DNA of 40,649 bases from positions 1 to 40,649 of the IMG/VR virus record IMGVR_UViG_3300020138_000004; one strand, written 5' to 3'. This document shows, piece by piece, positions 4,448 to 39,173 of the stretch. The notes under the pieces are model-generated. The model ran no database searches. It was not told the DNA's origin and was given only the letters and a program-made list of their open reading frames with translations. This stretch comes from a virus. A program made the translations under genes and the position numbers. Positions within the stretch are counted from its first letter, which is position 1. Each line of letters begins with the position of its first letter.

Positions 4448-4701
4448 TGCTTGATCCTAACAATCTGCCCTGCCGAATCATGACATCCGAAGTTTTGGAA
4501 CTGGCGCGCTTCGGATCATCAAAGCTGAGGCAAAAACAGAAACTGGGGGAATTTCCAAATCCCATAGATCGCGGCAAACAAAGCATTTATGACCGGGATC
4601 AGGTTTTGGCCGCTTTGGGATTGATCGAACCCGTGGAAGGAAGTGCACACCATGATCCTTTCAGGAAAGGACTTGAGAGACTTGGCAAAGCTGGAAAATG
4701 A
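4444..4701 (+). CDS. xis: AlpA/excisionase-type helix-turn-helix protein (putative Xis)
   Basis: MTSEVLELARFGSSKLRQKQKLGEFPNPIDRGKQSIYDRDQVLAAL fits the AlpA/Xis HTH pattern (..FP.P......W....V..W). It lies immediately upstream of, and overlaps, the integrase gene. Confidence 0.6.
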   Translation: MMLDPNNLPCRIMTSEVLELARFGSSKLRQKQKLGEFPNPIDRGKQSIYDRDQVLAALGLIEPVEGSAHHDPFRKGLERLGKAGK

Positions 4702-5803
4702 TTTGCCGGCATATTGCGAGGTGCGCCAGCGTAAAGGCTATGCGGTGGTGTATTTCGTCGTGCGCAAGCATATCCGGCCCAAGGGGTGGAAACCAACTTA
4801 TGAAATCGGCCGGACAGACCGCCTAAGCAATGGCGAGATAATCAAAAGAGGCAGGGAATTGTATGAAGCGCTGAAAGAGGCGCGCAAGTCGGAATTGTGC
4901 GACTCCCCTTCCCGCGTTCCAAAAGGATCACTGGCATGGCTAATTGAGCGGTACAAGGAATCCGAGCACTATACAAACCTGAAACCGGCAACACAAAAAG
5001 GCTATCTGCATTATCTGGACACGATAAAAGAATGGTCGGCACTCTCTGGGCATCCCCATGTGCGCTTATTGACGCCGCCGACGATTTGGAAGTTTTTGAA
5101 CCGCTGGAAGGACACGCCGCGCACGAGAAAGCACTATAAGGCGAATCTTTCCAAGCTGTATCAGGTAGCGATCGAGCAGGGCTGCGTGTCTTCAAACCCC
5201 ATGCGGGAAATCAAGCTTCCGAAAGCCAAGAGCAAAAAGCAGCCGTTTAAGGTGTGGAAGCTGAAAGATATTGAATCCTTCGCAAATAAAGCTGATGAAT
5301 TAGGCCTGTCCAACGTCGGAACGGCCGTAATCGTTGCATGGGAAGCATTCAGGCAAACCGATGTTTTTGATCTGCAAGAGCCGAGGGACTATAAAAACGG
5401 CTCATTCCGTTTCTTCACGTCAAAGACAGACCAGCTCATCACGATCAAGGCGTCCGCGCGCACGGTAGAGAGGCTTTCTAATCGACCGTCCGGCCAGCTT
5501 CTTTTGACCGTGAACGACCTGACAAAGATGAAGTGGACGAAGGATTCCTTCTACAACCAATATAAGAAGGTGCTGGAGCAATGCGGATTGAAGGGGCATG
5601 TTTTCCGCCGGATCAGGAATTCATCAGCTATCCATGCTCTCAAAGCTGACCTGACGGATGCCGAGTTCCAGCAGCGTTACGGATGGACGAAAAGCGACGT
5701 AAGGGCGATGCGCGATCTATACACTGATATAGACCAGGAGATCATCGACAAGGGGGCGGAGAAGATCGCCCGCTTGGAAAAAGTTCAACGGATCAAAAAA
5801 TGA
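4643..5803 (+). CDS. int: Tyrosine integrase
   Basis: The C-terminal catalytic region GHVFRRIRNSSAIHAL...GWTKSDVRAMRDLYTD supplies the HxxR box and the terminal Tyr. It is adjacent to a tRNA-derived attP. The start is uncertain (4643 or 4652). Confidence 0.9.
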   Translation: MHTMILSGKDLRDLAKLENDLPAYCEVRQRKGYAVVYFVVRKHIRPKGWKPTYEIGRTDRLSNGEIIKRGRELYEALKEARKSELCDSPSRVPKGSLAWLIERYKESEHYTNLKPATQKGYLHYLDTIKEWSALSGHPHVRLLTPPTIWKFLNRWKDTPRTRKHYKANLSKLYQVAIEQGCVSSNPMREIKLPKAKSKKQPFKVWKLKDIESFANKADELGLSNVGTAVIVAWEAFRQTDVFDLQEPRDYKNGSFRFFTSKTDQLITIKASARTVERLSNRPSGQLLLTVNDLTKMKWTKDSFYNQYKKVLEQCGLKGHVFRRIRNSSAIHALKADLTDAEFQQRYGWTKSDVRAMRDLYTDIDQEIIDKGAEKIARLEKVQRIKK

Positions 5804-6040: not shown

Positions 6041-6244
6041 TTATTGGTAATAATCCTTACACCGCTGGCGCCGGTTCGATTCATACCGCCACATCCAGCG
6101 CTTTGTGGTGGGGGTATCCTCTGGGTGGGCGGTTCCCCTCTCCGTCCAATCGCAGGACGTATCAGCGATGATTCGCGGGCCGCATGATGCCAAACTCGCG
6201 CAGACCGCGATCAATAGCAGCATCGTCCATATTTCTTTCTTCAT
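6041..6244 (-). CDS. o-spanin (outer-membrane lipoprotein, Rz1-like)
   Basis: Signal peptide with lipobox MKKEIWTMLLLIAVCASLASC. It starts inside the i-spanin gene in another frame and extends past it (overlapped architecture). It is the last gene of the lysis cassette. Confidence 0.7.
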   Translation of the reverse strand: MKKEIWTMLLLIAVCASLASCGPRIIADTSCDWTERGTAHPEDTPTTKRWMWRYESNRRQRCKDYYQ

Positions 6245-6413
6245 GGGTTATCTTCTCCTGATCTTTTTTTGCCTTCGCCGATACCTGTACTCCCGCCGCG
6301 GCCATGTCCCTGATGGCGCGGTTGTAGCCCTTCATGTCCCCGAGCCAATAAGAAAGGCCCGACATAAGGACAAGGAACGCGGCGACAAGCGCCCCGATTT
6401 TCAGTTTCATCAT
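6162..6413 (-). CDS. i-spanin (Rz-like, N-terminal TM anchor)
   Basis: MMKLKIGALVAAFLVLMSGLSYWL forms a TM helix and is followed by a charged periplasmic segment. The gene contains the start of the lipoprotein ORF. Confidence 0.65.
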   Translation of the reverse strand: MMKLKIGALVAAFLVLMSGLSYWLGDMKGYNRAIRDMAAAGVQVSAKAKKDQEKITHEERNMDDAAIDRGLREFGIMRPANHR

Positions 6414-6964
6414 TCGTTTATCCCCCTCACGTCAGTGCCGTGCAGGACGGCCAGAATGGCAACGGCCGCGGCGGCCCCAGTCAAGCATTCCTTTGTCCAG
6501 TGCGGCCATTTCATACGGTGGCCAATCTCATAGCTGGACGGCCAGAGGACAGCGGTGATGATTGCGCCCGGTCCCGTCGGAAGGCCTATCAGGAAGCCCT
6601 TAACACCCATGTATAGGCGGCAATAGGCGGCGGTAGACGGATCGGCCTTTATGGTTTTGCCGTTCAGCCAGTCCACGAAAGGTTTCAGGGTTGAAGTGCG
6701 GTCGGGATTATAGCCACCCTGCCCCCAGTGAAGCGCGGGAGCCGTTGCAGATTGGATAAGGGCGTATGACCATGCGATAGCTAGGGCGCCTGTGATATAG
6801 CCATCCTGCATGAATCCGAACGGCAAAGCTAAAAAGGCTTCCGGCAGCCATGTGAAATTGATCTTTTTGCCGAAAATCTCGATTTCTTTATCAAGGATGT
6901 TTGAATATGGAAGCGATCCTCCGGCATATCCGGCACAGATGGCCATATAGATTATCAGCATCAT
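6410..6964 (-). CDS. Polytopic membrane protein of unknown function inside the lysis cassette
   Basis: 184 aa with about five hydrophobic segments. It is ATGA-coupled to the endolysin upstream and to the i-spanin downstream. No family recognised. Confidence 0.6.
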   Translation of the reverse strand: MMLIIYMAICAGYAGGSLPYSNILDKEIEIFGKKINFTWLPEAFLALPFGFMQDGYITGALAIAWSYALIQSATAPALHWGQGGYNPDRTSTLKPFVDWLNGKTIKADPSTAAYCRLYMGVKGFLIGLPTGPGAIITAVLWPSSYEIGHRMKWPHWTKECLTGAAAAVAILAVLHGTDVRGINE

Positions 6965-7431
6965 GGTTTTTTCTCCTCAAAATGTACAAGGTCTTTGACT
7001 TTCCACTCCCCGCCCCACGTGATCGGAATTCCAAGATCGTTCCCGCAGGAATAGAAGGCTTTGGCAATTTCGTAATACGGTTCCGGCTCCCATGTGCCTT
7101 TGCCGCCGACAAGGGCCATAACATCGATCGCTTCCCCGTCCTGGTGCCGGGAGCGGTTTACCCAGCTCACCCCGCGGGCGATCATGGAACGCTGTTCTTC
7201 CTCTGTCCGAAACCCGTGATAAACAACAAAATCGACCTTCGTGCGCTTTATAGCGCAATGGGCTACGGCCTGAATCCGTGGGGAGGTCGGGGCGAGAGTG
7301 TTTAAGGAACGCTGACTGAACGCAAAGCCAGAATAAATGATGGCCGCACTTGCTGTCGCCAGTGTCGCCGCTCGCGCCGGCGTAACAAAAAGGCCCCGAA
7401 GGGCCTGCGCAATGGTTCTTATGAACGCCAT
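6961..7431 (-). CDS. Endolysin, peptidase M15 type, with a possible SAR/signal N-terminus
   Basis: Zn-ligand motifs SRHQDGEAIDVM and DLVHFE match the H..G.A.D ... D..H pattern of VanY/T5-type endopeptidases. Track ORF 6961..7545 is trimmed to ATG 7431. The N-terminus ARAATLATASAAIIYSGFAF is weakly hydrophobic and rich in Ala/Ser/Thr/Gly. Confidence 0.8.
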   Translation of the reverse strand: MAFIRTIAQALRGLFVTPARAATLATASAAIIYSGFAFSQRSLNTLAPTSPRIQAVAHCAIKRTKVDFVVYHGFRTEEEQRSMIARGVSWVNRSRHQDGEAIDVMALVGGKGTWEPEPYYEIAKAFYSCGNDLGIPITWGGEWKVKDLVHFEEKKP

Positions 7432-7649
7432 TTTTCCCACTTTTCCCGGAACGCGCTTCCCCATCCAGCGACAACCCCATAGGCTTTTGGGATGAGAATG
7501 ACGATTTGGGCGCCCAGATAAAGAAGCGTCAGGATCGCAACCCATTCGTTCAGCGTTATGCCGTATACCGTGACCATCGCGGCGGCCCCGCCTAATCTTG
7601 CCGTTTCTACCTTTGAATCAATATCCATGACTGAATCCCTATAGCTCAT
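7419..7649 (-). CDS. Holin (two TM helices; Met1/Met8 possible dual start)
   Basis: 76 aa. Hydrophobic segments are LGGAAAMVTVYGI and WVAILTLLYLGAQIVILI, and the C-terminus REKWEKWRS is charged. It lies directly upstream of the endolysin and overlaps it. Confidence 0.7.
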   Translation of the reverse strand: MSYRDSVMDIDSKVETARLGGAAAMVTVYGITLNEWVAILTLLYLGAQIVILIPKAYGVVAGWGSAFREKWEKWRS

Positions 7650-21563: not shown

Positions 21564-23705
21564 TTATATCGTGACATTTGCTTGGGTATAATTTCCGGAA
21601 CGAATGAGATCATTCTCAAGTCCTTTATTAGCGGCTTCTTCAAGAGTTCTGGCAGTTTCCGCCTGCCCTTTAACCTGACTGACCGCCATATCAGACAGCG
21701 TTTTTTCGGCGGAAGCGTTGTTCTTCCTGACTTCACTCTCAACCTTGGCCACCTGCGCATGCGTGAGTTGAGATTGAAGTTGTTCGATCTGCGCTTGTAA
21801 CTGCTGGACAACCTGCATAGGCACCATGTCCTGCGGCTGGAGGATGCGGGATAGACGGTTTCTGACATCTCCATCCAGTCCGGGGAGAAGTTGGATCGCT
21901 TCCATGTGAAAGGCTTTGGCGGTGGCGGCATCGCCAATAGACAGGTACTTGTCCCCCATCGCTGCAATTCCGCTTGCCGTTTCCTGCCTGTCTTCCGGCG
22001 TTTCGGGCGCTTCCATGATGGAAACATCATATTCCGGCGCAAACATGTCTTCAGTCACTTGTAGAAAAACATCGGCTCCGTCTTCCCCGGTTACGCGGAG
22101 CAGCATGCCGTTATTGTTCTGCACCCAGACACGAATCAGATCGCCATTCAGGCGCGCATCCTCTTTCTGATAGAGGGTCACGGAATCGAAATAGCGGGCC
22201 ATCTTGGAAATGACCTGACGGATGCGGCGCTTGTAAAGAATGCCGCTCTGATCTTCTCGCTCCATGTCACCCACGAAGGAAGGATCAACGCCCGCCGAAG
22301 CAATCCCCTGCTCGGACAAGGTGATGATGTTTTCCAGCCCAGTAGGAAGGGCGGGGCGGGTTTTCTCTTGGATGCGCTGTTGGACCAAGGCGCCGTCTTC
22401 CACGACAATTACGGCATCCGTACGGGCGACCTTGTTCTCGAATTCCTGCACATCCTCAACGGCGCCGCGTTCCAGCATCCAGCCGCCTTTGGAATTGGTC
22501 GCGATCGTGAACATCAATTCTGTCAGCGCTTTGTTGTAGTAGCGCTGCGGGTCCATCATGGAATTGACCATGCCGGTCCAGATTTTTTGCGACGGGTTAA
22601 AAACTCCCGTCTTGAACTTGATAGAGAATCCCTGCTGGCAGATGGATTTGAAGTGGTTAAAGACGTGATTGCCGGAATAGACGGCTGTGTAAAACACTTT
22701 TCTCGTAAAGCCGACGGGATTAATCAGGTCGCCGAATTCTTTGACCAGTATTCTTTTGGTCTTTTCATCGAAGACCAACTCTTCGGCCGTCGGGTCCATG
22801 CGGAACATGTCATAGGTCTGCGCATTTTCCGGACCGACTTCCCCGGTGTCCTGCGCGATAATCTCTAATCTGGCCCTGAAATACAGCGCGGCGTCTATAT
22901 CATCCGTTTCGTAAATAGGATTTTTTGCCTTATAGAAAGTCTCATATTCAAACCATTGGTGGTTATAAACGCGCACCATGTTCTCTTCCTTGGAAACCCA
23001 TTCCGCGGAATCGTCATAACGTATCTTGTCGTACAATCCGCCCCAGGGATTCCAGACATAGCCCCTTTCATCGGCGGCTACATTATCCACTGACTGAAAA
23101 TCATCAGGTTCCGAACCTTGGAAAAGGTCTAAAGCATCCTGCAAGGGATAATCATCAAAGTAATAGGCCCAGCGTGCATCCAGAAGGTTCTTCGCCGTAG
23201 CGGTAGGGTCCCATCCCGTCCTTTTCGGATCGAGGCGAACCTTGATAATCTCGCCGTTCGGGTCGGTCGTGGAGTTTCCCACGATATAAGACAGGTCCGT
23301 TTCCGTGGCGCCGTAACCACAGATCATCATATCTGCGTCCTGATCCGTCTCAACCTGATCGGCGTTGGCGTTTTCCCTGTGGAAACTATAAAGCGCATTC
23401 ATATTCTTGGAATATATCTGCTGCTCTTCTTTGGCGTTGAGACGGGCAATGTATTTGGCCTGCCGGCGGTTCTGCGCCATAAACCCGACAACAGCATCAA
23501 CATTCGACTGGACCTTGTTAAAGTTCACCGTCGCGCGTTTCCGGCGCCCCGTAGAGTCGATGAACTGGATACGGTCCTCATAAGTCATCTGATCGCCGTT
23601 GTAGAACGCAAAACAGGCATCGGTATTGTCGTATTGCGGCGACAGGCTTCGCCTTGTGGATTCCCTCTGTTTGCGCAGTTTCTCGGTCAGGCCAAGATTA
23701 GCCAT
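21564..23705 (-). CDS. Portal protein
   Basis: 713 aa. It lies directly after the large terminase (shared-base junction) and before the scaffold gene. Confidence 0.75.
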   Translation of the reverse strand: MANLGLTEKLRKQRESTRRSLSPQYDNTDACFAFYNGDQMTYEDRIQFIDSTGRRKRATVNFNKVQSNVDAVVGFMAQNRRQAKYIARLNAKEEQQIYSKNMNALYSFHRENANADQVETDQDADMMICGYGATETDLSYIVGNSTTDPNGEIIKVRLDPKRTGWDPTATAKNLLDARWAYYFDDYPLQDALDLFQGSEPDDFQSVDNVAADERGYVWNPWGGLYDKIRYDDSAEWVSKEENMVRVYNHQWFEYETFYKAKNPIYETDDIDAALYFRARLEIIAQDTGEVGPENAQTYDMFRMDPTAEELVFDEKTKRILVKEFGDLINPVGFTRKVFYTAVYSGNHVFNHFKSICQQGFSIKFKTGVFNPSQKIWTGMVNSMMDPQRYYNKALTELMFTIATNSKGGWMLERGAVEDVQEFENKVARTDAVIVVEDGALVQQRIQEKTRPALPTGLENIITLSEQGIASAGVDPSFVGDMEREDQSGILYKRRIRQVISKMARYFDSVTLYQKEDARLNGDLIRVWVQNNNGMLLRVTGEDGADVFLQVTEDMFAPEYDVSIMEAPETPEDRQETASGIAAMGDKYLSIGDAATAKAFHMEAIQLLPGLDGDVRNRLSRILQPQDMVPMQVVQQLQAQIEQLQSQLTHAQVAKVESEVRKNNASAEKTLSDMAVSQVKGQAETARTLEEAANKGLENDLIRSGNYTQANVTI

Positions 23706-25222
23706 TAAAACTCCATCCAGCTTTGCGGTTCAGGTTTTGGCCGCATGGCCTTTTCCACCATGTTCATGGCCGGACGCGGGAATGACAGCATGAGGTCGGC
23801 CTCATAGACCCGGCTCTTGGCATCCATCAGGTCATCATGCCTTGCACGAGGGAATGTGTTCATTTCGTTAATAAATTCCTTAACAAGATCGAATTGCCGC
23901 CCTTCCCCATCCACGTACAAAAGCGTTTGCGGGAAATACCATCGGCCATTTTCCATGTCGGGTATCAATTTGCGAATGCGCTCTTCCTTCTGCATCGAGC
24001 CGCCAAGCTCAATCAGGGGAAAATGGTAAGCATCCATATTCTGTTTTTCGCGGATATAGTGGGTATCCGTCATCATACCGTATTTTTCGTAGCCGACTTT
24101 TGGCGGTTTCCCAGTCAGCCCGTTCCATTTGCGGTGCATCATAAAGAGCGTCTCAACACGCTCTGTCGGATTCAGCCTGTCTCTTATGCCATCCAGCCAA
24201 TAGTAGTTATTATCCGGAGCCAGACCGATCACATCAAACACCGTCCAGTCGGACAATTTGCGTTTCTTCTTGTTGATTTCCTCGCCGCCCGCAGGATCGA
24301 CAAGGATGCACAGATTCATGGTCTTTGGCTTGACGGCGCCGGGATTGTAATATTGTAGCCAGCCTTCCTTGAACTCGCCGCCGCCCACAGGGATAGGCTC
24401 CTGCATGTACTGCCCTGAAAAGTGATAGGTCCCGAGATCAACCTTAAGCTTGTCCAAAGCTTCCTTACCAAGGCGCGGGGTCAAATAACTCCCTTCGTCC
24501 ATCTCCCATGACTTGCCGCGAAAATCTATTTGTATTCGTTTAGGCGCAAAGGCTGGTAGTTTCAGAAGCGTATAGCCGCCATCCTTCAGTAAATCTCCCG
24601 TCGGGTCGGCCTCATGAAGCCTTTGCATGATCATCACGAAGCGCCGATTTTTATAATCATTAAACCGGGAAAACAGGGTTGACCTGATCTCATTGATGGC
24701 ATTAACCCGGATCGTATCGGAAACCGCTTCCTTCGGATTTATTGGATCGTCAATAATCAGTGTGTTGCAGCCGAAGCCCGTGATGGTTCCGCCGATCCCG
24801 GTTCCCTTGTATTGCCCGGCTTTGGTGGTTGTAAAATAGTCTTTTTTGTCCTGATCTTCGGAAATATTCGTTGCGAACAACTCCCGATACCAGTCCGAGC
24901 GTATGATTTGCCGCGCGCGCATGACATTGCGCTCTGCCAGCATATGGGCATAAGACGCCCCAATAAACTGGTGGTGAGGCTCTTTCCCCAATACCCATGC
25001 AGGGAATATCTGCGCCACCTGTACGGATTTTAACGTCCGCGGCGGCTCGTTAATGATCAGGTCCTGTATTTCGCCTGCATAAAGCGCTTCCAAATATTCA
25101 CTGATCGCCCCGATATGCCAGTTATACTCAAACTCTACGCCCGGCTCCAAAACTCCAAAGGCCTTGCATGTGAATGTCTCCAGATTCTCCCTGCATATCG
25201 CTTGGAGAAGATCGGGAGTCAT
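23705..25222 (-). CDS. terL: Terminase large subunit
   Basis: ATPase-like motifs EPPRTLKS and NTLIIDDP. The C-terminal nuclease-like segment contains LCILVDPAGG and RHDDLMDAKS. Size is 505 aa and the portal gene follows. Confidence 0.85.
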   Translation of the reverse strand: MTPDLLQAICRENLETFTCKAFGVLEPGVEFEYNWHIGAISEYLEALYAGEIQDLIINEPPRTLKSVQVAQIFPAWVLGKEPHHQFIGASYAHMLAERNVMRARQIIRSDWYRELFATNISEDQDKKDYFTTTKAGQYKGTGIGGTITGFGCNTLIIDDPINPKEAVSDTIRVNAINEIRSTLFSRFNDYKNRRFVMIMQRLHEADPTGDLLKDGGYTLLKLPAFAPKRIQIDFRGKSWEMDEGSYLTPRLGKEALDKLKVDLGTYHFSGQYMQEPIPVGGGEFKEGWLQYYNPGAVKPKTMNLCILVDPAGGEEINKKKRKLSDWTVFDVIGLAPDNNYYWLDGIRDRLNPTERVETLFMMHRKWNGLTGKPPKVGYEKYGMMTDTHYIREKQNMDAYHFPLIELGGSMQKEERIRKLIPDMENGRWYFPQTLLYVDGEGRQFDLVKEFINEMNTFPRARHDDLMDAKSRVYEADLMLSFPRPAMNMVEKAMRPKPEPQSWMEF

Positions 25223-32427: not shown

Positions 32428-32867
32428 TATTCCCCCATCGCGTAAAGCAGCAGGGCAACGGCATCTGCCGCATTGTCATCCTGCACATTGAATCCTTTGC
32501 CCTTCACTGCGGCCATGACTTCGGGCTTCTTGGCCTTGCCAGAGCCGCAGATTGATTTTTTGATCGTCATGGGTGAAATCATGTGGCGCGGAATGTTCCG
32601 GCTCTCGGCGGCTCTGTTGGCTTCCCATGTCAGCCCCCAAAGCAATTCCGTGGTTGGTAGCCCGTTCTTGTAAAATCCGCGCTCGATATAGACATCATGC
32701 GGCTCGATCTCGGTCAGCAATTCGAGCAGCCAGCGATTGAACCGCCGCCCTCTAACTGCGTTGTCCGAAGAAAGGCCGGAAAAATCCCTTGTGCCAAACT
32801 GGATATCTTCCGGCGTGTTGCCGTATGCGAATCCGGTTCTTAAGGCTATATCGAGCGCGAGGATCAT
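32427..32867 (-). CDS. RuvC-like Holliday junction resolvase
   Basis: MILALDIALRTGFAYG supplies the first catalytic Asp motif. The C-terminal QDDNAADAVALLLYAM matches the RuvC end motif. Track ORF trimmed to ATG 32867 (TAATG overlap). Confidence 0.75.
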   Translation of the reverse strand: MILALDIALRTGFAYGNTPEDIQFGTRDFSGLSSDNAVRGRRFNRWLLELLTEIEPHDVYIERGFYKNGLPTTELLWGLTWEANRAAESRNIPRHMISPMTIKKSICGSGKAKKPEVMAAVKGKGFNVQDDNAADAVALLLYAMGE

Positions 32868-33364
32868 TAGATGTGCGCCCACCTATCGCGTCTGGCAATC
32901 CGGTTAACCATATCGGTAGAAACAGAAAAACGATCAGAGATGGATTTGCTTGAATATCCGGCCAATTTCAGATCTCTTATTTTTTTTACTTGAAGAGAAG
33001 TTAGCCTGGCATTTCCATTCCTCTCGCCTGCCCCGGTTACAGAGGTTCCGTGCTTTACACTATCCTGATAGTTTTCTCTGGTTGTGGCCCACCTAAGGTT
33101 AGTAAAATGATTGTTGTCTTTGCTTCCATCCCCGTGCGCGACCACATGGCGCGTCGATGGTTGCAAACCACAGAATGCCTCACATACTATCCTGTGGACA
33201 TAAAAGCTTTTTCTGCTTTTTTTTGTTCCGCTGTATAAATAAACCAGATTGTAGCCGTCATGATTTTTGTGTTGTCGCAACACCCTTGAAGTTTTTTTAT
33301 TACGAACGTTTCCGCAATCAGATACTTCGTATTTGGGATTGCCCGTTACTGTCTTCCACTGCAT
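32867..33364 (-). CDS. NUMOD4 + HNH homing endonuclease with a C-terminal HTH
   Basis: WKTVTGNPKYEVSDCGNVRNKKT is NUMOD4-like. YVHRIVCEAFCG...VVAHGDGSKDNNHFTNLRWATTRENYQD is HNH_3-like. The C-terminal YSSKSISDRFSVSTDMVNRIARR is HTH-like. Confidence 0.85.
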   Translation of the reverse strand: MQWKTVTGNPKYEVSDCGNVRNKKTSRVLRQHKNHDGYNLVYLYSGTKKSRKSFYVHRIVCEAFCGLQPSTRHVVAHGDGSKDNNHFTNLRWATTRENYQDSVKHGTSVTGAGERNGNARLTSLQVKKIRDLKLAGYSSKSISDRFSVSTDMVNRIARRDRWAHI

Positions 33365-33472
33365 TTAATTCCCCTGATGGAGTTAGCCTCCTCGGATCAG
33401 CTGAATGCTTCTTCGCAAGGTTGGCGGTTGGTATGCCCGGCCCTTTGAGCGGAGGCCGGAAACCGCTTTCCC

Positions 33473-33745
33473 CTAGGAAAAGGAAACTTTCGCCGATCCT
33501 CGAAAGGACAGATCGGCGCCGTGATGCGCAGAGGTGCAAGGCCGCGCTACGGGATTATGTTTTTTGCTTGCAATTCGGTCAGCTTGTGGATAAGTCTGTT
33601 CGCAATTACAGGAATCCAGCTCACGCAAAGCGCGCCCGTTAAGGGTATTCAGCGCTAAAGGCGGCTTATTGCCTTGTGTTTGCTGGGCCGAAAAAAAAGA
33701 GGAATCGGGTTTGATTTCGGAAAACGACAAGCTGTCCGGCTTCAT
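33473..33745 (-). CDS. Doubtful ORF (90 aa, low-complexity product)
   Basis: It is co-oriented with the operon, and SD GAAGGAG lies about 10 nt before the ATG. The product, MKPDSLSFSEIKPDSSFF..., looks non-globular. Confidence 0.2.
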   Translation of the reverse strand: MKPDSLSFSEIKPDSSFFSAQQTQGNKPPLALNTLNGRALRELDSCNCEQTYPQADRIASKKHNPVARPCTSAHHGADLSFRGSAKVSFS

Positions 33746-33750
33746 GTTCT

Positions 33751-33939
33751 TTACGCTCCTTCTCTATTTGATTGAGAAGGGGCAAATCGACCTGAAGGAG
33801 TATCAGGATTTTGCGCGGCGCTATCTTGAAGCCTCACGTCTGCCCGAACCATTGAAGCCAATAATTCGAGATGCGATTGATACTTTAGGCGAAAGTAAAA
33901 CCCTGCAATAGCATCCCTGATTGTCTTAAAAGGCTTCAT
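33751..33939 (-). CDS. Possible small early protein (62 aa)
   Basis: ATG 33939 is preceded by AGGA at about 6 nt and is co-oriented with cro. A competing + strand ORF (33744..33911) covers the same DNA. Confidence 0.3.
   Translation of the reverse strand: MKPFKTIRDAIAGFYFRLKYQSHLELLASMVRADVRLQDSAAQNPDTPSGRFAPSQSNREGA
33758..33780. promoter_or_regulatory. 23-bp palindrome CCTTCTC-N9-GAGAAGG
   Basis: It has perfect 7-bp arms. It shares the 9-mer TTCTCTATT with the two operators at 37374 and 37409. On the minus-strand RNA the 3' arm overlaps the SD of the 33745 ORF. Confidence 0.45.
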
Positions 33940-33950
33940 GGCGTTCCTGT

Positions 33951-33989
33951 AAAAATAAAGCCCCCGCGCGACTGGCATCGCTTGAGGGG
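33951..33989 (-). terminator. Possible weak terminator just after cro
   Basis: The minus-strand RNA reads CCCC-UCAA-GCGA-UGCCAG-UCGC-GC-GGGG followed by CUUUAUUUUU. The stem is imperfect. Confidence 0.3.
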
Positions 33990-34187
33990 TTATTGGGTGG
34001 TTGAAAAGAAACCGTTGTAAGTGACCTTTTCGGCACCAAATTCACGCAAGTAGGCTTCAAACAGCTTGCGCGAACCTTGCTTCTTTCCGTTCTCGACTTC
34101 GGAAAGGTAGCCCTTTGCAAAACCAAGGCGCTTGGACATTTCTTCCAAGGTCAACCCTTCCGCATTCCTAATTTCGATAGGTCTCAT
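33990..34187 (-). CDS. cro: Cro-like XRE-family HTH protein (65 aa; alternative start 34238)
   Basis: MRPIEIRNAEGLTLEEMSKRLGFAKGYLSEVENGKKQGS is a typical HTH_XRE. The gene is divergent from the CI-like gene. There is no clear SD before ATG 34187. Confidence 0.7.
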   Translation of the reverse strand: MRPIEIRNAEGLTLEEMSKRLGFAKGYLSEVENGKKQGSRKLFEAYLREFGAEKVTYNGFFSTTQ

Positions 34188-34280
34188 GTGGCGTAGGTTC
34201 TCATAATGAAAACCTAAAGGCAAGAGAAAAGTTCTCATTTTTTCCCTTTGTAATTTTTCGAGGGGGGCTAGGAGTCGGAT
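34188..34280. promoter_or_regulatory. CI/Cro divergent control region with inverted repeats
   Basis: TAGGTT-N11-AACCTA at 34194..34216. GAGAA-AAG-TTCTC at 34224..34236. GTTCTCAT occurs twice (34198 and 34231). Promoter hexamers were not confidently placed. Confidence 0.5.
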
Positions 34281-34952
34281 ATGCAAAACAACATCAGGTT
34301 TCACCGCAAAAAGGCGGGCCTAAGTCAGACCCAACTTGCGGGTGCGGCTGGCACGGTGAAAAGCAAGATTTCCACCCTCGAAAGCGGAAAGCAGGAGCTA
34401 ACGCTGACATGGATGGAAAAGATATGCGATGCCCTTGCCAGTCACGGTTACAAAATTGAGCCTGCGGATTTGTTGCCGAATTCAGAAATAAAGAAGCTCG
34501 GCTATATCAACGTCATAGGCGAGGTGCAGGCTGGTATATGGAGCGAAGCCTCCCAATGGGATGAGGCCGACTGGCAGGTGGCTCTGTTCGACGTAAGCGA
34601 AGCTGAGAAGCTGGCTTACGGGCTTCGCGTTAAAGGCGATTCCATGGATGAGTTCTACCCCGAAGGCTCTATTGTCGTCGTCATGGACATCCATGATTAT
34701 CCTATTCCGATCGACACTTTCGACCATGTGATCGTTCAGCGTTGCCGGGGCGGGGATATTTGCGAAACTACAATCAAGGAACTGGTTATTAAGGGGGACA
34801 AGGCCGAGTTATGGCCGCGGTCAAGAAACCCGAAATATAAAGACCCGATATGCCTGTTTTGGCCGTACGATAAGCGCCAGCAGCATGGGATTGAATCTGT
34901 CGAAATTAAAGGGGTGGTAATAGGCTCAATCAATAGAAGGAAGAGATTTTAA
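34281..34952 (+). CDS. cI: CI-type repressor: XRE HTH plus S24 (LexA-like) autopeptidase
   Basis: HTH: IRFHRKKAGLSQTQLAGAAGTVKSKISTLESGKQ. Candidate Ala-Gly cleavage site in GEVQAGIW. Ser motif in VKGDSMDEFYPEGSIVVV and Lys in TTIKELV. SD AGGAG lies upstream. Confidence 0.9.
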   Translation: MQNNIRFHRKKAGLSQTQLAGAAGTVKSKISTLESGKQELTLTWMEKICDALASHGYKIEPADLLPNSEIKKLGYINVIGEVQAGIWSEASQWDEADWQVALFDVSEAEKLAYGLRVKGDSMDEFYPEGSIVVVMDIHDYPIPIDTFDHVIVQRCRGGDICETTIKELVIKGDKAELWPRSRNPKYKDPICLFWPYDKRQQHGIESVEIKGVVIGSINRRKRF

Positions 34953-34962
34953 GGAAAAACAT

Positions 34963-35457
34963 ATGAAAAAACTTTTTATTTTGAGCGTGTTTGTATTGGC
35001 AGGGTGCTCGCAAACAGGGCTTTATTCCCCAGAACAGCAGGCGCGCGTCATGAGTGATGCATATCTATGCAAAGAAGCCACAGGCAGAATAGCCGAGGAT
35101 ATCCAAAAAGCAGAGATCGGGCGCAGAGAAATTGATTGCAAAAAGGTCATAGAAAACAAAGAAAAAGCCAAAGCTGCCGCCTCAAAAAAAGAGAAAAAAG
35201 CCCAAGAGGAGCGGTACGCGGACGCAAATAGACTTCATAGGCAAAAACCCAAAATCAGAAACATAAGCGACCAAGTATTAGCGGACTCGATCGACCAGTA
35301 TTACATCGTGAGCGATAACGGCGGCTCTCATACCGAACGATGCGTTTATGCCGGCATGGTAAAGGCTGCGGCGGCACAGGCTAAAAGGCAGGACTATTAC
35401 CGAGCATGGAACGATTTTGCGAAGCTGGACTGCTCGCTTGCAGAGTGGCTTGATTAA
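34963..35457 (+). CDS. Lipoprotein (164 aa), co-oriented 10 nt after cI
   Basis: Lipobox in MKKLFILSVFVLAGC, SD AAGGAAAAACAT, a Lys/Glu-rich linker and four further Cys residues. Confidence 0.75.
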   Translation: MKKLFILSVFVLAGCSQTGLYSPEQQARVMSDAYLCKEATGRIAEDIQKAEIGRREIDCKKVIENKEKAKAAASKKEKKAQEERYADANRLHRQKPKIRNISDQVLADSIDQYYIVSDNGGSHTERCVYAGMVKAAAAQAKRQDYYRAWNDFAKLDCSLAEWLD

Positions 35458-35484
35458 CCGCCCCCAGAGAGGAGAGGATGAAGA

Positions 35485-35676
35485 ATGGATGATAAAACCC
35501 ATTATGTGCTTTTAGATATACTCTCTGCCCAACTGAAAATGCACGGGTCAATACAAGATTTGTTCTATCAGGTTTACAATCCAGAATTGCCTGGCCTTAT
35601 AGATAAAAATGATCTTAAGAAAAACATAGATGAGACATTTAAGGATATCTCCAAAGCGATCGAGAGGCTGAAATGA
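35485..35676 (+). CDS. Small helical protein (63 aa)
   Basis: ORF with SD GAGAGGAGAGGA upstream. Its stop overlaps the next start. Confidence 0.55.
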   Translation: MDDKTHYVLLDILSAQLKMHGSIQDLFYQVYNPELPGLIDKNDLKKNIDETFKDISKAIERLK

Positions 35677-36014
35677 GCGCCCCCGATACATGGAGGCTTA
35701 AACAAGCCGAGGATGATATTAAGTCCCTTAAAGAAAAACTTGAAATCTCCGGCGGCGGCGGTGATAATGGTGGCATGACGCTTTGGCAAACCAGCGTAGA
35801 GAACAGGCTCGGGCAACTCCATACGGACATTGTCGGCCTAAAAAACTTCCTGCTTATTGCTTATGGCGCGGGGTTCCTTGCCATGCTTGGCATTTTCGGC
35901 GCGGGGTTTGCTTCCCTGGATCATAAATTCGAGCGCGTAAATGAGCGCATGGATATCACCAATGCGACCTTATCAGATATTCAATCCGTTCTTTCACAGC
36001 AGGATAAGAAGTGA
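35673..36014 (+). CDS. Single-pass membrane protein with coiled-coil N-terminus (113 aa)
   Basis: It has a GGGGDNGG linker and a TM segment FLLIAYGAGFLAMLGIFGAGF. The start is an ATGA overlap. Confidence 0.6.
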   Translation: MSAPDTWRLKQAEDDIKSLKEKLEISGGGGDNGGMTLWQTSVENRLGQLHTDIVGLKNFLLIAYGAGFLAMLGIFGAGFASLDHKFERVNERMDITNATLSDIQSVLSQQDKK

Positions 36015-36151
36015 AGCCTACCGATCATCAACATGACATGGATCGTCGCCTTAAAAACATAGACGCACGATTCAAGCTTGTTATGTGCACATTTTTTGCT
36101 TCTTTTCTGTCCCTTGCTGCTTTGTTGGCAAAGGGCTTTGGCTGGCTGTAG
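36011..36151 (+). CDS. Small C-terminally anchored membrane protein (46 aa, GTG start; alternative ATG 36038)
   Basis: Hand translation VKPTDHQHDMDRRLKNIDARFKLVMCTFFASFLSLAALLAKGFGWL. It forms a GTGA overlap with the upstream stop. Confidence 0.4.
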   Translation: MKPTDHQHDMDRRLKNIDARFKLVMCTFFASFLSLAALLAKGFGWL

Positions 36152-36157
36152 GCCGCC

Positions 36158-36475
36158 ATGAACCTCGTCCCCAAACAAACCCTCCCCGACGCGCAATATG
36201 TCGAGCTGCATCAAGAGCTGTCCGAATGGCTGCTCGATAATGGCTATTTCCCCGCCGCAGAGGGGCTTACAGAGGAAGAATGGGCCGATCTAAGGCACAG
36301 AGCCTCGGAAGTCGCCCACGGGCTTATACGGCTCTCCCTAAAGGCTTTGGGGAAGGATTTGAAAACCGCGATCGCGGATAAGTCGATCTACCCTGCCCTT
36401 GTCCATCCCCTGCCCATGCCGGATGTGAGCATCGACCTCGATTTTATCGTGAACGGGGAAAAGGTTAAATTTTGA
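36158..36475 (+). CDS. Acidic hypothetical protein (105 aa)
   Basis: ORF-track ORF starting 6 nt after the preceding stop. No motif recognised. Confidence 0.55.
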   Translation: MNLVPKQTLPDAQYVELHQELSEWLLDNGYFPAAEGLTEEEWADLRHRASEVAHGLIRLSLKALGKDLKTAIADKSIYPALVHPLPMPDVSIDLDFIVNGEKVKF

Positions 36476-36532
36476 ATGGCGCGTGAAACGGGCCATGGGC
36501 GATACGGGGCTGGATAGGCAGAGGTGAGCGGG

Positions 36533-36742
36533 TTAGAATTTTTTGTCTATTCCCGCATCTTTCAGAACACCGTTTGCCGTATGGCGGGATTTAACGCCTT
36601 TATCAACAATCAAGTTCTTTTTTACGATTGGGCTATACCAAATCTCATGATCCCCCCTGCCCTGTCGGACAAAAGTGCATCTATGTTCTTGAAGGGTTTT
36701 AATTAATTCTCGATAGAATCCTTTAGACACACGCCGCCCCAT
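36533..36742 (-). CDS. hicA: HicA-family toxin
   Basis: 69 aa. LIKTLQEHRCTFVRQGRGDHEIWYSP...SRHTANGVLKDAGI fits the HicA/YcfA pattern (L...G....RQ.GSH......P.H....gt...Ilk.ag). Confidence 0.75.
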   Translation of the reverse strand: MGRRVSKGFYRELIKTLQEHRCTFVRQGRGDHEIWYSPIVKKNLIVDKGVKSRHTANGVLKDAGIDKKF

Positions 36743-36995
36743 ACGGCACTACAAAAGAGCGCGGATCAAAGAGGAAGTTGTCACGGCTGATGTCTTCTTT
36801 GACGCCGTTCAATTCCAGCAATTCAGGCGCGACCTCCATAACTCGCTTCACGAGAGCCGACATCGTTGGGGCTTCGGTATTAAGGCCATAAATGTCATCG
36901 CTATGGGCTACAAACACCTCTGCTTCGCCGTCCCATTCAACAAAGACAGTATAGGTTTTTGGCTGGGCTAAAACGCGTTTTATCATGCTTAACAT
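36723..36995 (-). CDS. hicB: HicB-like (DUF1902-type) antitoxin
   Basis: YTVFVEWDGEAEVFVAHSDDIYGLNTEAPTMSALVKRVMEVAPELLE fits the HicB N-terminal fold pattern. It overlaps hicA by 20 nt. The start was chosen at the ATG 7 nt after AGGA (alternatives 37001 and 36986). Confidence 0.65.
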   Translation of the reverse strand: MLSMIKRVLAQPKTYTVFVEWDGEAEVFVAHSDDIYGLNTEAPTMSALVKRVMEVAPELLELNGVKEDISRDNFLFDPRSFVVPYGAACV

Positions 36996-37048
36996 TCTCA
37001 TATCCTGCCTAACAAGAGGTTAACAGAATCCGCCCGTCACGGGCAAAT

Positions 37049-37132
37049 CAGGGGAAATATACTTTTTGGGTTGGGAGTAACATAGAGAGACATTTTGGCG
37101 TTTTCAAGGCCATTATGGGGTGATTTCCCCTG
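37049..37132. repeat. 10-bp perfect inverted repeat bracketing the hicBA promoter
   Basis: CAGGGGAAAT at 37049..37058 and ATTTCCCCTG at 37123..37132. Confidence 0.8.
37079..37107 (-). promoter_or_regulatory. Candidate hicBA promoter
   Basis: On the minus strand: TTGAAA (37107..37102), 17-nt spacer, TATGTT (37084..37079). This is about 75 nt upstream of hicB. Confidence 0.5.
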
Positions 37133-37145
37133 TCTGAAAAGCCCC

Positions 37146-37334
37146 CTATTTCGATGGTGTGGCAATTACCTTGCCGCTGTCCTGGCTTTCGGGGTGATGG
37201 GCAGCACAATAAGAAATCCCCGCTAAGGCTATTCCTAGCCCGATCCAGAACCCCAGCCAGCAAAGACCTTTCCCGATCCAATAAAGGTGTCCCATGTGAT
37301 TGGGGCTATCTTTCCATTTTCCGTCTTCATCCAT
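37146..37334 (-). CDS. Small Trp/Gly-rich membrane protein (62 aa)
   Basis: TM segment LCWLGFWIGLGIALAGISYCAA, with GGGGG about 6 nt before the ATG. The gene is divergent from the early + strand promoter. Confidence 0.45.
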   Translation of the reverse strand: MDEDGKWKDSPNHMGHLYWIGKGLCWLGFWIGLGIALAGISYCAAHHPESQDSGKVIATPSK

Positions 37335-37372
37335 ACCCCCTTATCCCGCGATTTTCCGCTGTTGTCAAAATA

Positions 37373-37426
37373 ATTCTCTATTAGCGAATATTTTTCCTTG
37401 ACTTGCTGTTCTCTATTAGCGAATAT
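37373..37426 (+). promoter_or_regulatory. Early + strand promoter flanked and overlapped by two identical 18-bp operators
   Basis: TTCTCTATTAGCGAATAT lies at 37374..37391 and 37409..37426. TTGACT (37398..37403), 17-nt spacer, GAATAT (37421..37426). Each operator contains the 17-bp quasi-palindrome (A/G)TTCTCTATTAGCGAAT. Confidence 0.65.
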
Positions 37427-37449
37427 CAGATCAACAAAAGGAAACCGCC

Positions 37450-37782
37450 ATGTCACAGACACAGAAACACACGACTCTATACGCGCATCGCCAATTTGTA
37501 ACCGACAAGCAATCATTCTTTATCGACGAAAACGGAACTCGTTACGGCGAAACCCCGAACTTGGTAATTGACGCAGGTGATGAAAACCTAGCCGCCCTGA
37601 TCGCCGCCGCGCCGGAACTGCTTGAGGCTTTGGAACGGGCAGATATACGCCTTGAAAGCATTTCTGACTATTTAGAAATGCACTGTAGCGGCGAAAACGC
37701 CATGGCAAAAAGGCAAATTCTTTATTCGATCCGCGAACAAATCACAGCCGCAATCGCCAAAGCCACAGGCGGTGCGCAATGA
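37450..37782 (+). CDS. Hypothetical early protein (110 aa)
   Basis: It is the first ORF after the early promoter, with SD AAAGGAA upstream. No family recognised. Confidence 0.6.
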   Translation: MSQTQKHTTLYAHRQFVTDKQSFFIDENGTRYGETPNLVIDAGDENLAALIAAAPELLEALERADIRLESISDYLEMHCSGENAMAKRQILYSIREQITAAIAKATGGAQ

Positions 37783-38108
37783 ACATCCCTTTCTCCTACG
37801 AAGAACCAAGCAGCTATTTCGATCATTACCTGATCGCAAAAACGAGCGATGGGCTTGAAATAAAAATCGGCTTTAAGGGTTTTGAGGCTGAATACATCTA
37901 CATATCCGAACATGAGATGGAGGTTGCCAGCGATGATTATAAGGGCCTCTACGTCAATTTCGGCCATGGGCTGGAAATGAAGATCATCCCTATCGCCAGC
38001 GTGATCCAGCAGGCCAATGCTCAAATTGATTTCATCGTTGCCGAAGTCGAAGCCGAGCAGCGCGACTGGGATCGGCATGTCGCCTCTTTTTCTCAAGCAC
38101 AATTATAG
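37779..38108 (+). CDS. Hypothetical early protein (109 aa)
   Basis: ATGA-coupled ORF. No motif recognised. Confidence 0.55.
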   Translation: MNIPFSYEEPSSYFDHYLIAKTSDGLEIKIGFKGFEAEYIYISEHEMEVASDDYKGLYVNFGHGLEMKIIPIASVIQQANAQIDFIVAEVEAEQRDWDRHVASFSQAQL

Positions 38109-38117
38109 GAAACCGAA

Positions 38118-39173
38118 ATGATCACCAAGCTAACAAAACAACAAGAAGCAAAATTTCCCCTTTATGTCCGGAAATGGATTGATATTGGCCTTTGCACAAA
38201 ACCTGCTGATCGTGAGAAAGCAGAAAAAGCCATCAAAGGTATGTATGGATTGGCGAAGCTACGGGAGCCTGTTGTTATATGGCTTCCCTGCCCCCTAAGC
38301 GCGGCCATGAGCGCATGTGCTTTCTCTTATTACATGAAGACACGGCACAATAAAAGTTCTGCGGTGGGTTCTGCGGTGGGTTCTGCGGTGGGTTCTGCGG
38401 TGAATTCTGCGGTGCGTTCTGCGGTGGATTCTGCGGTGCGTTCTGCGGTGCGTTCTGCGGTGAATTCTGCGGTGGGTTCTGCGGTGGGTTCTGCGGTGGG
38501 TTCTGCGGTGGGTTCTGCGGGATACTCTTATTTTGGGGGCTCCTTATGGGCTGGCTGGGGTGTTTGGGGATCATATTATGGCCCTGCTGCACTTGATTAC
38601 TATTCCGAGGTTCTTGGTGTTTCGATTGACCTAAACCTCAATGAAATAACTAAAAGTTGCGGCTATTATTGGACGCTTGATGGCGTTTGTTTTGCCAGTG
38701 AACGACCGAATCTAATTAAGTTGGATGAACAAGGACGCCTCCATAGCGAAACTGGGCTTGCGATTTCCTATCCATCAGGATGGGGCCTGTATTACTGGCA
38801 TGGGACACGTATCCCGCCAGAATGGCTTTCTGAAAAAGAAAAACTTACTCCACAGGTCGCATTGACGTGGGAAAATGTCGAGCAGCGCCGCTGTGCATGT
38901 GAAATTCTAGGCTGGGGTAATGTCCTCGAACACCCTTCCTTAAATCCAAAAATCATCGACAAAGACGAACCGCATATCGGTTCACTGATTGAGGTTGATT
39001 TACCAGATGCTCCCAAACAACGATTTATCAAATTCCAATGTGGGACTGGTAGATGGTTTGCAGAACCCGTTAACGACCCAAAGTACAATACCGCACTCAA
39101 AGCTAACGCTGGCGGGAATGGCTGGCGTGGCCTTGGTGACCCTGAGAGTTTTATTCCATTCATTCGTAGCTAA
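38118..39173 (+). CDS. Repeat-containing protein (351 aa), resembles the uncharacterised DUF6745-type family (from memory)
   Basis: The N-terminus is W.DIGLCTKPADREKAEKAIKGMYGLAKLREPVVIWLPCPLSA. The centre is (SAVx)13. The C-terminus is YYWTLDGVCFASERP...DEQGRLHSETGLAISYPSGWGLYYWHGTRIP...ENVEQRRCACEILGW. Confidence 0.7.
   Translation: MITKLTKQQEAKFPLYVRKWIDIGLCTKPADREKAEKAIKGMYGLAKLREPVVIWLPCPLSAAMSACAFSYYMKTRHNKSSAVGSAVGSAVGSAVNSAVRSAVDSAVRSAVRSAVNSAVGSAVGSAVGSAVGSAGYSYFGGSLWAGWGVWGSYYGPAALDYYSEVLGVSIDLNLNEITKSCGYYWTLDGVCFASERPNLIKLDEQGRLHSETGLAISYPSGWGLYYWHGTRIPPEWLSEKEKLTPQVALTWENVEQRRCACEILGWGNVLEHPSLNPKIIDKDEPHIGSLIEVDLPDAPKQRFIKFQCGTGRWFAEPVNDPKYNTALKANAGGNGWRGLGDPESFIPFIRS
38358..38520. 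repeat. Thirteen tandem 12-bp units TCTGCGGTGNNT plus a partial unit
   Basis: Units start every 12 nt from 38358 to 38502. Only positions 10-11 vary (GG, AA, CG, GA), giving the order G G G N R D R R N G G G G. Confidence 0.95.

Follow-up and report, generated by a model that had tools for sequence, protein, structure and literature searches.

Genes that stay switched on beside the repressor of a prophage are a proven source of anti-phage functions, as rexAB and bstA illustrate. The gene bstA is located downstream of cI and presumably shares the cI promoter, an arrangement which is conserved across phages (PMC8585504). Superinfection exclusion is also mediated by lipoproteins, and the gene ltp of phage TP-J34 is located in the lysogeny module beside the repressor (PMC3952083). 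Lipoprotein-mediated exclusion was shown experimentally for Lpp of mEpimmI, whose lpp genes reside in the structural cluster and not by the repressor (PMC11893012), and the sieA gene of P22 is expressed from the prophage (PMC10883804). In this study, we analyzed a block of five small genes, ORF1 to ORF5 (ORF, open reading frame), which follows the repressor gene cI in the IMG/VR virus record IMGVR_UViG_3300020138_000004 (positions 1 to 40,649; this whole stretch of 40,649 nt is referred to as the window).

An earlier note on this DNA had proposed that the block is one five-gene cassette, read together with cI and serving exclusion or abortive infection (Abi). Judging from how relatives of its genes are distributed, the block appears to consist of three or four independently acquired accessory units rather than one system, and two compact candidates, ORF1 and ORF2-ORF4, for both of which the comparison with relatives supports expression in the lysogen, take the place of the five-gene system. 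We consider the chances to be even that these units form a stack in a lambda-type immunity region, which would be read with cI in the lysogen and for which exclusion or Abi would be the most likely role. Accessory genes in the immunity region of temperate phages are already known; the protein families found here are unannotated and rare, and we regard the result as a lead worth following, not as a discovery.

The block behind cI and its genomic position

The repressor gene and the five genes which follow it are listed below.

34281-34952, plus strand: cI, 223 amino acids (aa), repressor with a helix-turn-helix (HTH) domain and a Peptidase_S24 (S24 autopeptidase) domain
34963-35457, plus strand: ORF1, 164 aa, lipoprotein
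35485-35676, plus strand: ORF2, 63 aa, predicted to be helical and cytoplasmic
35673-36014, plus strand: ORF3, 113 aa, predicted single-pass membrane protein
36011-36151, plus strand: ORF4, 46 aa, GTG start, predicted to be tail-anchored
36158-36475, plus strand: ORF5, 105 aa, acidic, pI 4.9

The cI product matches Pfam PF00717 (2e-11), HTH_31 (1.8e-9) and phrog_4 (3e-26). As the earlier note had described, five ORFs follow the cI stop on the same strand, and their recomputed junctions are 10 nt, 27 nt, a 4-nt overlap, a 4-nt overlap and 6 nt. The protein features it had listed, including the lipobox LAGC and the Cys set of ORF1, the GGGGDNGG linker of ORF3, the membrane segments and the acidic character of ORF5, were all found again in the translations, and a consensus scan of the plus strand from 34952 to 36475 returned 0 terminator-like sites, in line with its description of a terminator-free block. 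A codon model was trained on 18 long window genes, and with it each of the five genes scores best among the six frames in its annotated frame (0.19-0.37 log2 odds per codon); the training genes score 0.21 +/- 0.07 and off-frames about -0.3. A Shine-Dalgarno-like purine run is also present 5' of each gene, the weakest being that of ORF5. According to this in-frame codon usage and these purine-rich ribosome-binding stretches, ORF1-5 look like real genes.

None of the five products could be given a family label, in agreement with the earlier note, and Pfam, PHROG functions, NCBIfam and PADLOC gave no meaningful match. For instance, the only match of ORF1-5 in PADLOC-DB 2.0 is that of ORF4 to PDC-S32 (E 0.011, 13.5 bits), which is not meaningful. 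No DNA-level similarity of 34281-36475 to GenBank phages was found, an Rfam scan of 33000-38000 gave chance-level matches only, a tRNA scan detected zero tRNAs, and exact-sequence look-ups of the window proteins among contigs returned no match.

Around the block, a cro-like gene and two operator-like regions were recognized, of which OR and OL denote the right and left operators and PL the left promoter.

33990-34187, minus strand: cro-like HTH gene (Pfam HTH_3/HTH_31), likely start ATG at 34187, 65 aa
34196-34246: putative right operator region in the cro/cI gap, palindrome GGTTCTCATAATGAAAACC (34196-34214) and a weaker, half-conserved TTCTCATTTTTTCCC (34232-34246)
37362-37426, plus strand: putative OL/PL, two exact 18-nt repeats TTCTCTATTAGCGAATAT at 37374 and 37409

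The cro gene of the window is 52% identical to that of L007, a locus which carries an ORF1 homolog, and because this alignment starts at residue 18 of the longest ORF, the true start of cro is likely the ATG at 34187. The core of the cro/cI-gap palindrome, TTCTCATAATGAAAA at 34198, has the same geometry as the cores of the 37374 and 37409 repeats, which are 15-bp imperfect palindromes, and each TTCTCTATTAGCGAATAT repeat overlaps promoter-like hexamers (TTGTCA-18-GAATAT and TTGACT-17-GAATAT) at their spacer and -10. The pattern TTCTC-W5-GnrAA has only three exact matches in 40.6 kb, one between cro and cI and two 5' of the gene starting at 37450; with one mismatch it has 8 matches in the window against 0.9 expected, a statistic which is supportive and not independent, since these three sites had themselves served to define the pattern. 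Independent support is provided by L007, in which three TTCTC-N5-GAGAA sites are located between cro and the repressor and the second is 12/15 identical to the 37374 and 37409 sites of the window; on this basis 37362-37426 is read as a putative OL/PL. The sites at 34196-34246, which agree with two of the three L007 operators, the first and the second, in geometry (TTCTC-N5-GnrAA) and in distance from the cro start, are likewise putative CI/Cro operators.

The immunity region is thus read as 34188-37430, with a reversed hicAB pair within it. On the minus strand, cro is followed by an HNH gene, a RuvC-like gene, replication genes, the terminase, virion genes and the endolysin. On the plus strand past the block, there are genes without an assigned function from 37450 and then, across the window ends, genes for Erf (489-1352), an exonuclease, an HNH protein, a single-stranded DNA-binding protein (SSB), a Lar-like protein and an integrase (4643-5803). 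This genome map is lambda-like, and the block occupies the rexA-rexB position. The repressor linkage proposed earlier is therefore retained in the sense that ORF1-5 lie between the cro/cI operators and a second, like operator pair heading the early-left operon, i.e., in the transcription unit or immunity region of the repressor. This arrangement supports indirectly the view of ORF1-5 as part of the cI operon, and by analogy with lambda rexA-rexB the block is most likely transcribed with cI from the maintenance promoter in the lysogen. In the proposed order, cro would be read in one direction from OR, and cI and ORF1 to ORF5 in the other, followed by hicAB in reverse and then by OL/PL, from which the early-left operon would start.

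Relatives of ORF1 and of the ORF3 family

ORF1 possesses a signal peptide with a lipobox (MKKLFILSVFVLAGC; lipobox LAGC, Cys15), whose Cys is invariant in the family, as well as four other Cys (36, 59, 127 and 157), a K/E-rich stretch, and Ser at +2, with no Asp at this position. Four relatives with 48-57% identity were found among 5.8 billion protein clusters, and a further one, among 185,579 species genomes, is a lipoprotein with the C-domain only, which is located after tail genes in a Comamonas koreensis prophage. No hit was obtained by tblastn in 50,697 phages or in 72,556 plasmids, and scans of IMG/VR with ORF1 and with the ORF1 alignment found no relatives. The C-terminal domain of the family is nearly invariant (KPKIRxIxDxVLADSIDQY...GGS...CVYAGMVKAAAAQAK...W.N...L.C), and the four Cys are conserved. 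The AlphaFold2 (AF2) model of ORF1 is all-helical, consisting of an N-terminal helical hairpin, a long K/E-rich helix and a three-helix C-terminal domain (predicted local distance difference test, pLDDT, ~90). Two disulfides are probable, and the protein, which lacks Asp at +2, is plausibly anchored in the outer membrane and faces the periplasm. In Foldseek searches against PDB and BFVD, the model found generic helical bundles only (E > 0.7), the ORF1 profile matched nothing among PDB sequences, and matches to annotated lipoproteins in NCBIfam are far below the cut-off and cover the signal peptide and the K/A-rich helix.

ORF1 homologs were found in two repressor-linked loci. In L011, cro and CI (40% identical to the CI of the window) are followed 13 nt later by the ORF1 homolog and then by an unrelated protein with several transmembrane (TM) segments. 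In L007, which has cro and a short HTH repressor, the ORF1 homolog and the end of the repressor gene share 8 nt, and 3' of the homolog there is a terminator (G+C hairpin and T-run), followed by a convergent gene. In L001, L002, L005 and L006, the ORF1 homolog is the last gene of a ~5.5-kb integrase/HTH_17/Rep element. ORF1 thus represents a rare helical lipoprotein family borne on mobile elements.

The ~5.5-kb integrative element, which spans 4812-10477 of L001 and 208-5745 of L005, encodes a tyrosine integrase, HTH_17, HTH_91 and a REP_ORF2-G2P replication protein. Its insertion site, in a Tad-pilus region, adjoins an amino-acid permease gene. The element could be a satellite, or else a small replicon that has become integrated, with cargo of the exclusion type. 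As well, a 65-nt direct repeat, 80% identical between its copies (2711-2775 and 3170-3234 of L011), is located 5' of each of two tandem membrane-protein genes after the ORF1 homolog, and looks like the trace of a tandem duplication of another repressor-distal accessory gene.

ORF1 might instead be a lysogenic-conversion factor which serves the host, for example in Bor/TraT-like envelope or serum resistance, and is not directed against phages. The gene bor of lambda is a precedent for a lipoprotein expressed in the lysogen, and the occurrence of the ORF1 family in prophages and as terminal cargo of a small integrative element would suit such a role. However, ORF1 does not resemble Bor, TraT or any annotated lipoprotein family, and its recurrent slot right behind a repressor is the pattern of exclusion genes (PMC8585504); we regard the conversion explanation as rather unlikely.

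ORF3 carries the GGGGDNGG linker and one hydrophobic segment (59-77), with ~32 residues beyond this TM helix. An exhaustive phmmer search recovered 73 representative clusters at E<=1e-3, compared with one partial relative only in a word-indexed search. The family is characterized by the signature GGGGxxGGM-x-WQxSVExRLGQLHxD followed by a Gly/Ala-rich TM helix, and ORF3 matches a family hidden Markov model (HMM) from which the window sequence had been left out at 2e-33. Neither Pfam nor the PDB sequences (searched with the family profile) gave more than coiled-coil noise, and the PHROG matches of the family are mostly to families of unknown function. tblastn of ORF3, a consensus-like ORF3 relative and the family member P0041 against the 50,697 phages found nothing, although the Gly-rich and TM parts may be lost to low-complexity masking; no relatives were obtained either when ORF3 was compared with the 72,556 plasmids by tblastn or in an IMG/VR scan with its sequence. 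The ORF3-family loci were found with a 12-sequence subset of a 40-sequence alignment. The sole extra locus returned by a degenerate DNA pattern for WQxSVExRLGQ, L020, was rejected as false.

In two phages the ORF3 homolog is the last gene between cI and OL. In L013 (IMG/VR), the near-palindrome TATACGTATGCGTATA with its neighbouring sequence is present between cro and CI and recurs at 7324-7380; between these operators, on the CI strand and with overlapping junctions, are CI, a 58-aa ORF, a 92-aa helical ORF and the ORF3 homolog (6878-7234), and exonuclease and recombinase-like genes lie downstream of the OL copies. In L019 (metagenome), AATGTACCCAAGCTAGGTAC occurs twice upstream of CI (3625-4194), which is followed by a 119-aa membrane protein, a 74-aa helical ORF (4658-4882) and the ORF3 homolog (4875-5228). 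Past the latter there is a G+C hairpin with a T-run, then the AATGTACCCAAGCTAGGTAC operator twice, overlapping a TTGACC promoter, and past OL a 105-aa ORF, a Rad52-like annealing protein (SSAP) and SSB. The operator sequences of the window, L013 and L019 are unrelated, and the CI proteins of L013 and L019 are 29% and 30% identical, respectively, to that of the window.

Other ORF3 homologs are located at a prophage end adjoining a host gene (L014-L016) or beside minor-tail and DNA-ejection genes (L018). In L017 (4872-5225), a lone ORF3-family gene has a G+C content at third codon positions (GC3) of 0.67, versus ~0.9 in host genes, with no phage genes nearby, and is flanked by transthyretin-like (hydroxyisourate hydrolase-type) and phosphoribosyltransferase-like genes.

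Wherever the sequence of an ORF3-family locus was available, the 3' end of a small helical ORF (63-92 aa) runs into the start of the ORF3-family gene. In L013, L014 and L019, these ORFs are 71-92 aa, helical and overlap the start of the ORF3 homolog; the ones of L019 and L014 are homologous (39% identity, E 2e-11), and the L013 one is marginal. ORF2 was considered as a homolog of these upstream partners and rejected, there being no detectable similarity, and from this comparison it is probably a positional analog only. No relatives of ORF2 were found in IMG/VR or in the fetched loci. The G+C content (GC) of ORF2 is 35.9%, compared with a window mean of 50.8%, and it is the lowest 192-nt stretch, at the 0.04th percentile of same-length windows, a composition which suggests that ORF2 arrived recently from a foreign source or took the place of the partner gene that is usual in the ORF3 family.

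ORF4, whose single hydrophobic segment (21-39) is C-terminal, is a truncated paralog of ORF3. It matches the ORF3-family HMM built without the window sequence (E 4e-7, 20 bits) at HMM positions 52-90, i.e., the pre-TM and TM part, and in BLASTP it shares 12/23 identities with the C-terminus of the family member P0002 (E 5e-8). Both ORF4 (0.0019) and P0041 (5.7e-9) match phrog_20262. The AKGFGWL end of ORF4 is common to short ORF3-family members, and the conserved N-terminal motif is absent from ORF4.

ORF5 found only itself in a search of 5.8 billion clusters, and no relatives were detected among the viral contigs of IMG/VR. Its single-sequence AF2 model is predicted to be helical (pLDDT 67) and has no fold or PDB match, so that ORF5 is best described as an apparent ORFan. 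Foldseek comparison of protein models, a check which the earlier note had proposed, thus gave no known fold match for ORF1 or ORF5.

ORF4, ORF5 and perhaps ORF2 might be decaying remnants or chance ORFs. Such an explanation would suit the lack of detectable relatives of ORF5 and ORF2, the truncation and GTG start of ORF4, and the weak ribosome-binding site of ORF5. However, the codon usage of all three is phage-typical in frame and better than in the other five frames, the 4-nt overlaps suggest translational coupling, and short family members with the AKGFGWL end exist elsewhere as independent genes, which makes decay or chance quite unlikely in our view.

Independence of the units and their possible roles

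ORF2-5 are absent from all 12 loci carrying ORF1 homologs (tblastn), and ORF1 is absent from all seven loci carrying ORF3 homologs (L013-L019). The two families thus occur separately in different phage and element backgrounds, a patchy distribution which, like the atypical GC of ORF2, is as in morons, and each of them is repressor-linked on its own in some loci. The survey envisaged in the earlier note, of whether the five genes co-occur next to repressors in other prophages, accordingly found no co-occurrence in these loci. We give hardly any credence to the alternative of a single dedicated system for defence or exclusion, which would comprise all five genes, be inherited as a whole and be read with cI. 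The single strand, the tight or overlapping junctions without a terminator between genes, and the presence of membrane and lipoprotein components adjoining the repressor would favour it. However, the distribution described above largely refutes it; ORF5 has no relatives, the GC across the block is a mosaic ranging from 36% (ORF2) to 54% (ORF5), and the ORF3 unit is accompanied by other, unrelated genes in L013 and L019. The unit borders in the window lack terminators; in other phages, a terminator is present past the ORF1 homolog (L007) and past the ORF3 homolog (L019).

Taking the block as a stack of independent units, position and predicted membrane localisation are the two features which point to a defence or exclusion function. 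The first unit would be ORF1, anchored in the outer membrane and facing the periplasm, where its nearly invariant, disulfide-bonded three-helix head would probably bind some conserved component of the envelope or of a phage; most likely, it would act in superinfection exclusion, at the step of receptor use or of DNA ejection. The second would be ORF2-ORF3-ORF4, which are presumably coupled in translation and might act as a membrane-acting exclusion or Abi module. ORF3 would be a single-pass, N-in protein of the inner membrane with the conserved motif in the cytoplasm, ORF2 its small cytoplasmic helical partner, and the Gly/Ala-rich TM helix of ORF3 could oligomerise. ORF4, which keeps the membrane part only, may modulate ORF3. 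The third unit would be ORF5 alone.

The conserved part of the ORF3 family is a motif predicted to be cytoplasmic, which, together with the location between OR and OL in three phages, could also indicate that these genes serve the life cycle of the phage itself, such as the lysogeny-lysis switch, induction, or modulation of host membranes or proteolysis. Roles of this kind have been proposed for RexA/RexB, cIII and kil of lambda. As a precedent, lambda RexAB was reported to help lysogens to pass into lytic growth (bioRxiv 10.1101/2021.04.19.439022). However, homologs of ORF1 and ORF3 are not confined to immunity regions, being located also in an integrative element, downstream of tail genes, at the end of a prophage and alone in a chromosome, which is atypical for switch components, and no DNA-binding or protease-related domain is present in ORF1-5. 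We regard a life-cycle role as unlikely.

ORF1 and/or ORF3-ORF4 were also considered as lysis-type proteins (spanin-, holin- or antiholin-like) which lie near cI by chance. ORF1 matches an Rz-like spanin PHROG (9e-4), a few single members of the ORF3 family match holin and spanin PHROGs weakly (E about 1e-3), a full-length protein with a truncated paralog is reminiscent of holin/antiholin pairs, and some ORF3 homologs adjoin virion genes. However, the spanin match of ORF1 is limited to residues 1-18, which are the signal peptide, and the mature protein (149 aa, helical) is unlike a short, Pro-rich o-spanin. The TM segment of ORF3 is at 59-77 with ~32 residues after it, whereas an i-spanin has an N-terminal TM segment and a long periplasmic coiled coil. 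No endolysin adjoins the block, and the annotated neighbours of ORF3 homologs, which are a part of all their neighbours, include none; any holin encoded between OR and OL would be made in the lysogen. Moreover, the phage has a complete lysis cassette elsewhere, as follows.

6041-7649, minus strand: lysis cassette of five genes at the end of the late operon
7419-7649, minus strand: holin-like protein, 76 aa, two TM segments
6961-7545, minus strand: endolysin (phrog_465)
6410-6964, minus strand: multi-TM protein, 184 aa
6162-6413, minus strand: i-spanin-like protein, 83 aa, overlapping the o-spanin-like gene
6041-6244, minus strand: o-spanin-like lipoprotein, 67 aa, lipobox LASC

Owing to this separate cassette, the signal-peptide-only match and the wrong architecture, the spanin or holin identity was rejected, and a lysis role is very unlikely.

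Several points weigh against the preferred reading, i.e., an exclusion-type stack read with cI. Neither family is tied to repressors, as ORF1 homologs are also cargo of a small integrative element or located after tail genes, and ORF3 homologs are also located beside virion genes (L014-L016, L018) or alone in the chromosome (L017). The repressor-linked phages share related cro or CI genes, and part of the repressor linkage may be inherited rather than independently selected. No known exclusion, Abi or defence protein resembles ORF1-5 in sequence, nor the ORF1 and ORF5 models in fold, and the weak holin and spanin matches mentioned above belong here too. As for transcription, a promoter-like TTGAAA-17-GATAAT (10/12) is present at 35740-35768 on the plus strand, inside ORF3 and upstream of ORF4 and ORF5; the number of such sites is within chance expectation in the consensus scan. 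The site is reminiscent of the internal rexB promoter of lambda. The block also lacks a closing terminator, and a candidate after ORF5 was rejected, the fold of 36440-36570 being indistinguishable from shuffles (z -0.68). Finally, OL was recognised through a pattern derived from the same three sites, and the -10 of OL/PL is weak (3/6), the promoter having been called by eye and missed by the consensus scan.

The locus offers two small unannotated families whose relatives are again adjacent to repressors in phages of different immunity specificity. We tentatively suggest, as a possibility below even chance, that two undescribed exclusion or defence families are stacked here, namely a membrane module of two parts and a new class of periplasmic exclusion lipoproteins. 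The module would be Rex-like and conserved at the rexAB position in a lineage of proteobacterial temperate phages, with a small helical protein as the cytoplasmic partner of the single-pass GGGG/WQxSVExRLGQLH protein and, in the window, the truncated paralog as modulator. The lipoproteins would have an invariant, disulfide-bonded three-helix head and be coupled repeatedly to repressor genes, and a small integrative element would carry them as well. If the two families exclude phages, new membrane and envelope mechanisms would be added, along with a positional mining rule for poorly studied proteobacterial prophages, which is to look between cI and OL for the genes at the OL end. Otherwise, the locus would be a typical mosaic of prophage ORFans.

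Downstream of the block, the HicBA pair which the earlier note had placed immediately after it is present, and it is encoded on the opposite strand, convergent with the block and inside the OR-OL interval.

36533-36742, minus strand: HicA toxin (PF07927, 28.8 bits, just above the cut-off of 27)
36723-37001, minus strand: DUF1902 HicB-like antitoxin (PF08972, 3e-15)

The antitoxin gene comes first and overlaps hicA by 20 nt, and the pair (36533-37001) also matches phrog_353 (2e-12). The third gene of the putative early-left operon (ORF 38118-39173, plus strand; 351 aa) contains a 12-nt tandem repeat GTTCTGCGGTGG at 38356-38520 (13.8 copies, 92% matches), which is translated into a (SAVG/SAVR/SAVN)n tract. 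Each early operon carries one HNH-type endonuclease gene, located at 2060-2596 (plus strand, strong PHROG match) and at 32867-33364 (minus strand, judged from sequence alone). The large terminase (23705-25222, minus strand) is at most ~32% identical to any of the 50,697 GenBank phages, and its best matches come from phages whose Gram-negative hosts are diverse (Yersinia, Idiomarina, Pseudoalteromonas and Pseudomonas), so that the phage appears to be distant from sequenced phages and to belong to an unsampled lineage.

Comparison with known exclusion systems

Similar to P22 SieA/SieB and HK97 gp15, which are morons, the ORF3 family would consist of small, prophage-encoded inner-membrane proteins, and its members are also located among or after virion genes. 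However, no sequence relationship to these proteins exists, and the cytoplasmic Gly-rich/WQxSVExRLGQLH motif of the ORF3 family is not described for them. BstA is likewise the product of an accessory gene behind a prophage repressor, but it is a single large cytoplasmic DNA-binding Abi protein with the aba self-immunity element, whereas the proteins of the window are small, assigned to the envelope and dissimilar to it.

Among the exclusion lipoproteins (Cor of phi80/N15, Llp of T5, Ltp of TP-J34 and Lpp of mEpimmI), ORF1 differs from Cor in that its match to phrog_1119 (E 0.032) covers residues 1-32 only, and its model matches no solved or viral predicted structure (PDB and BFVD; none below E 0.7), which separates it from Cor, Llp and Ltp. 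ORF1 is also much larger than Cor or Llp. What it shares with all of them is to be phage-encoded, to carry a lipobox and, probably, to be expressed by the prophage; like Ltp, it is located in the lysogeny module next to the repressor.

The closest comparison is that with lambda rexAB. ORF1-5 have no sequence similarity to RexA or RexB (Pfam, PHROG, NCBIfam and PADLOC were negative), RexB has four TM helices and ORF3 one, and the window adds the unrelated ORF1, ORF5 and reversed hicAB. Nevertheless, the unit would combine a cytoplasmic protein with a membrane protein, as rexAB does, and it occupies the same slot, downstream of cI, on the same strand, and before OL/PL and the early-left recombination/integration operon. 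The ORF3 homologs of L013 and L019 show the same layout, with the OR sequences repeated at OL.

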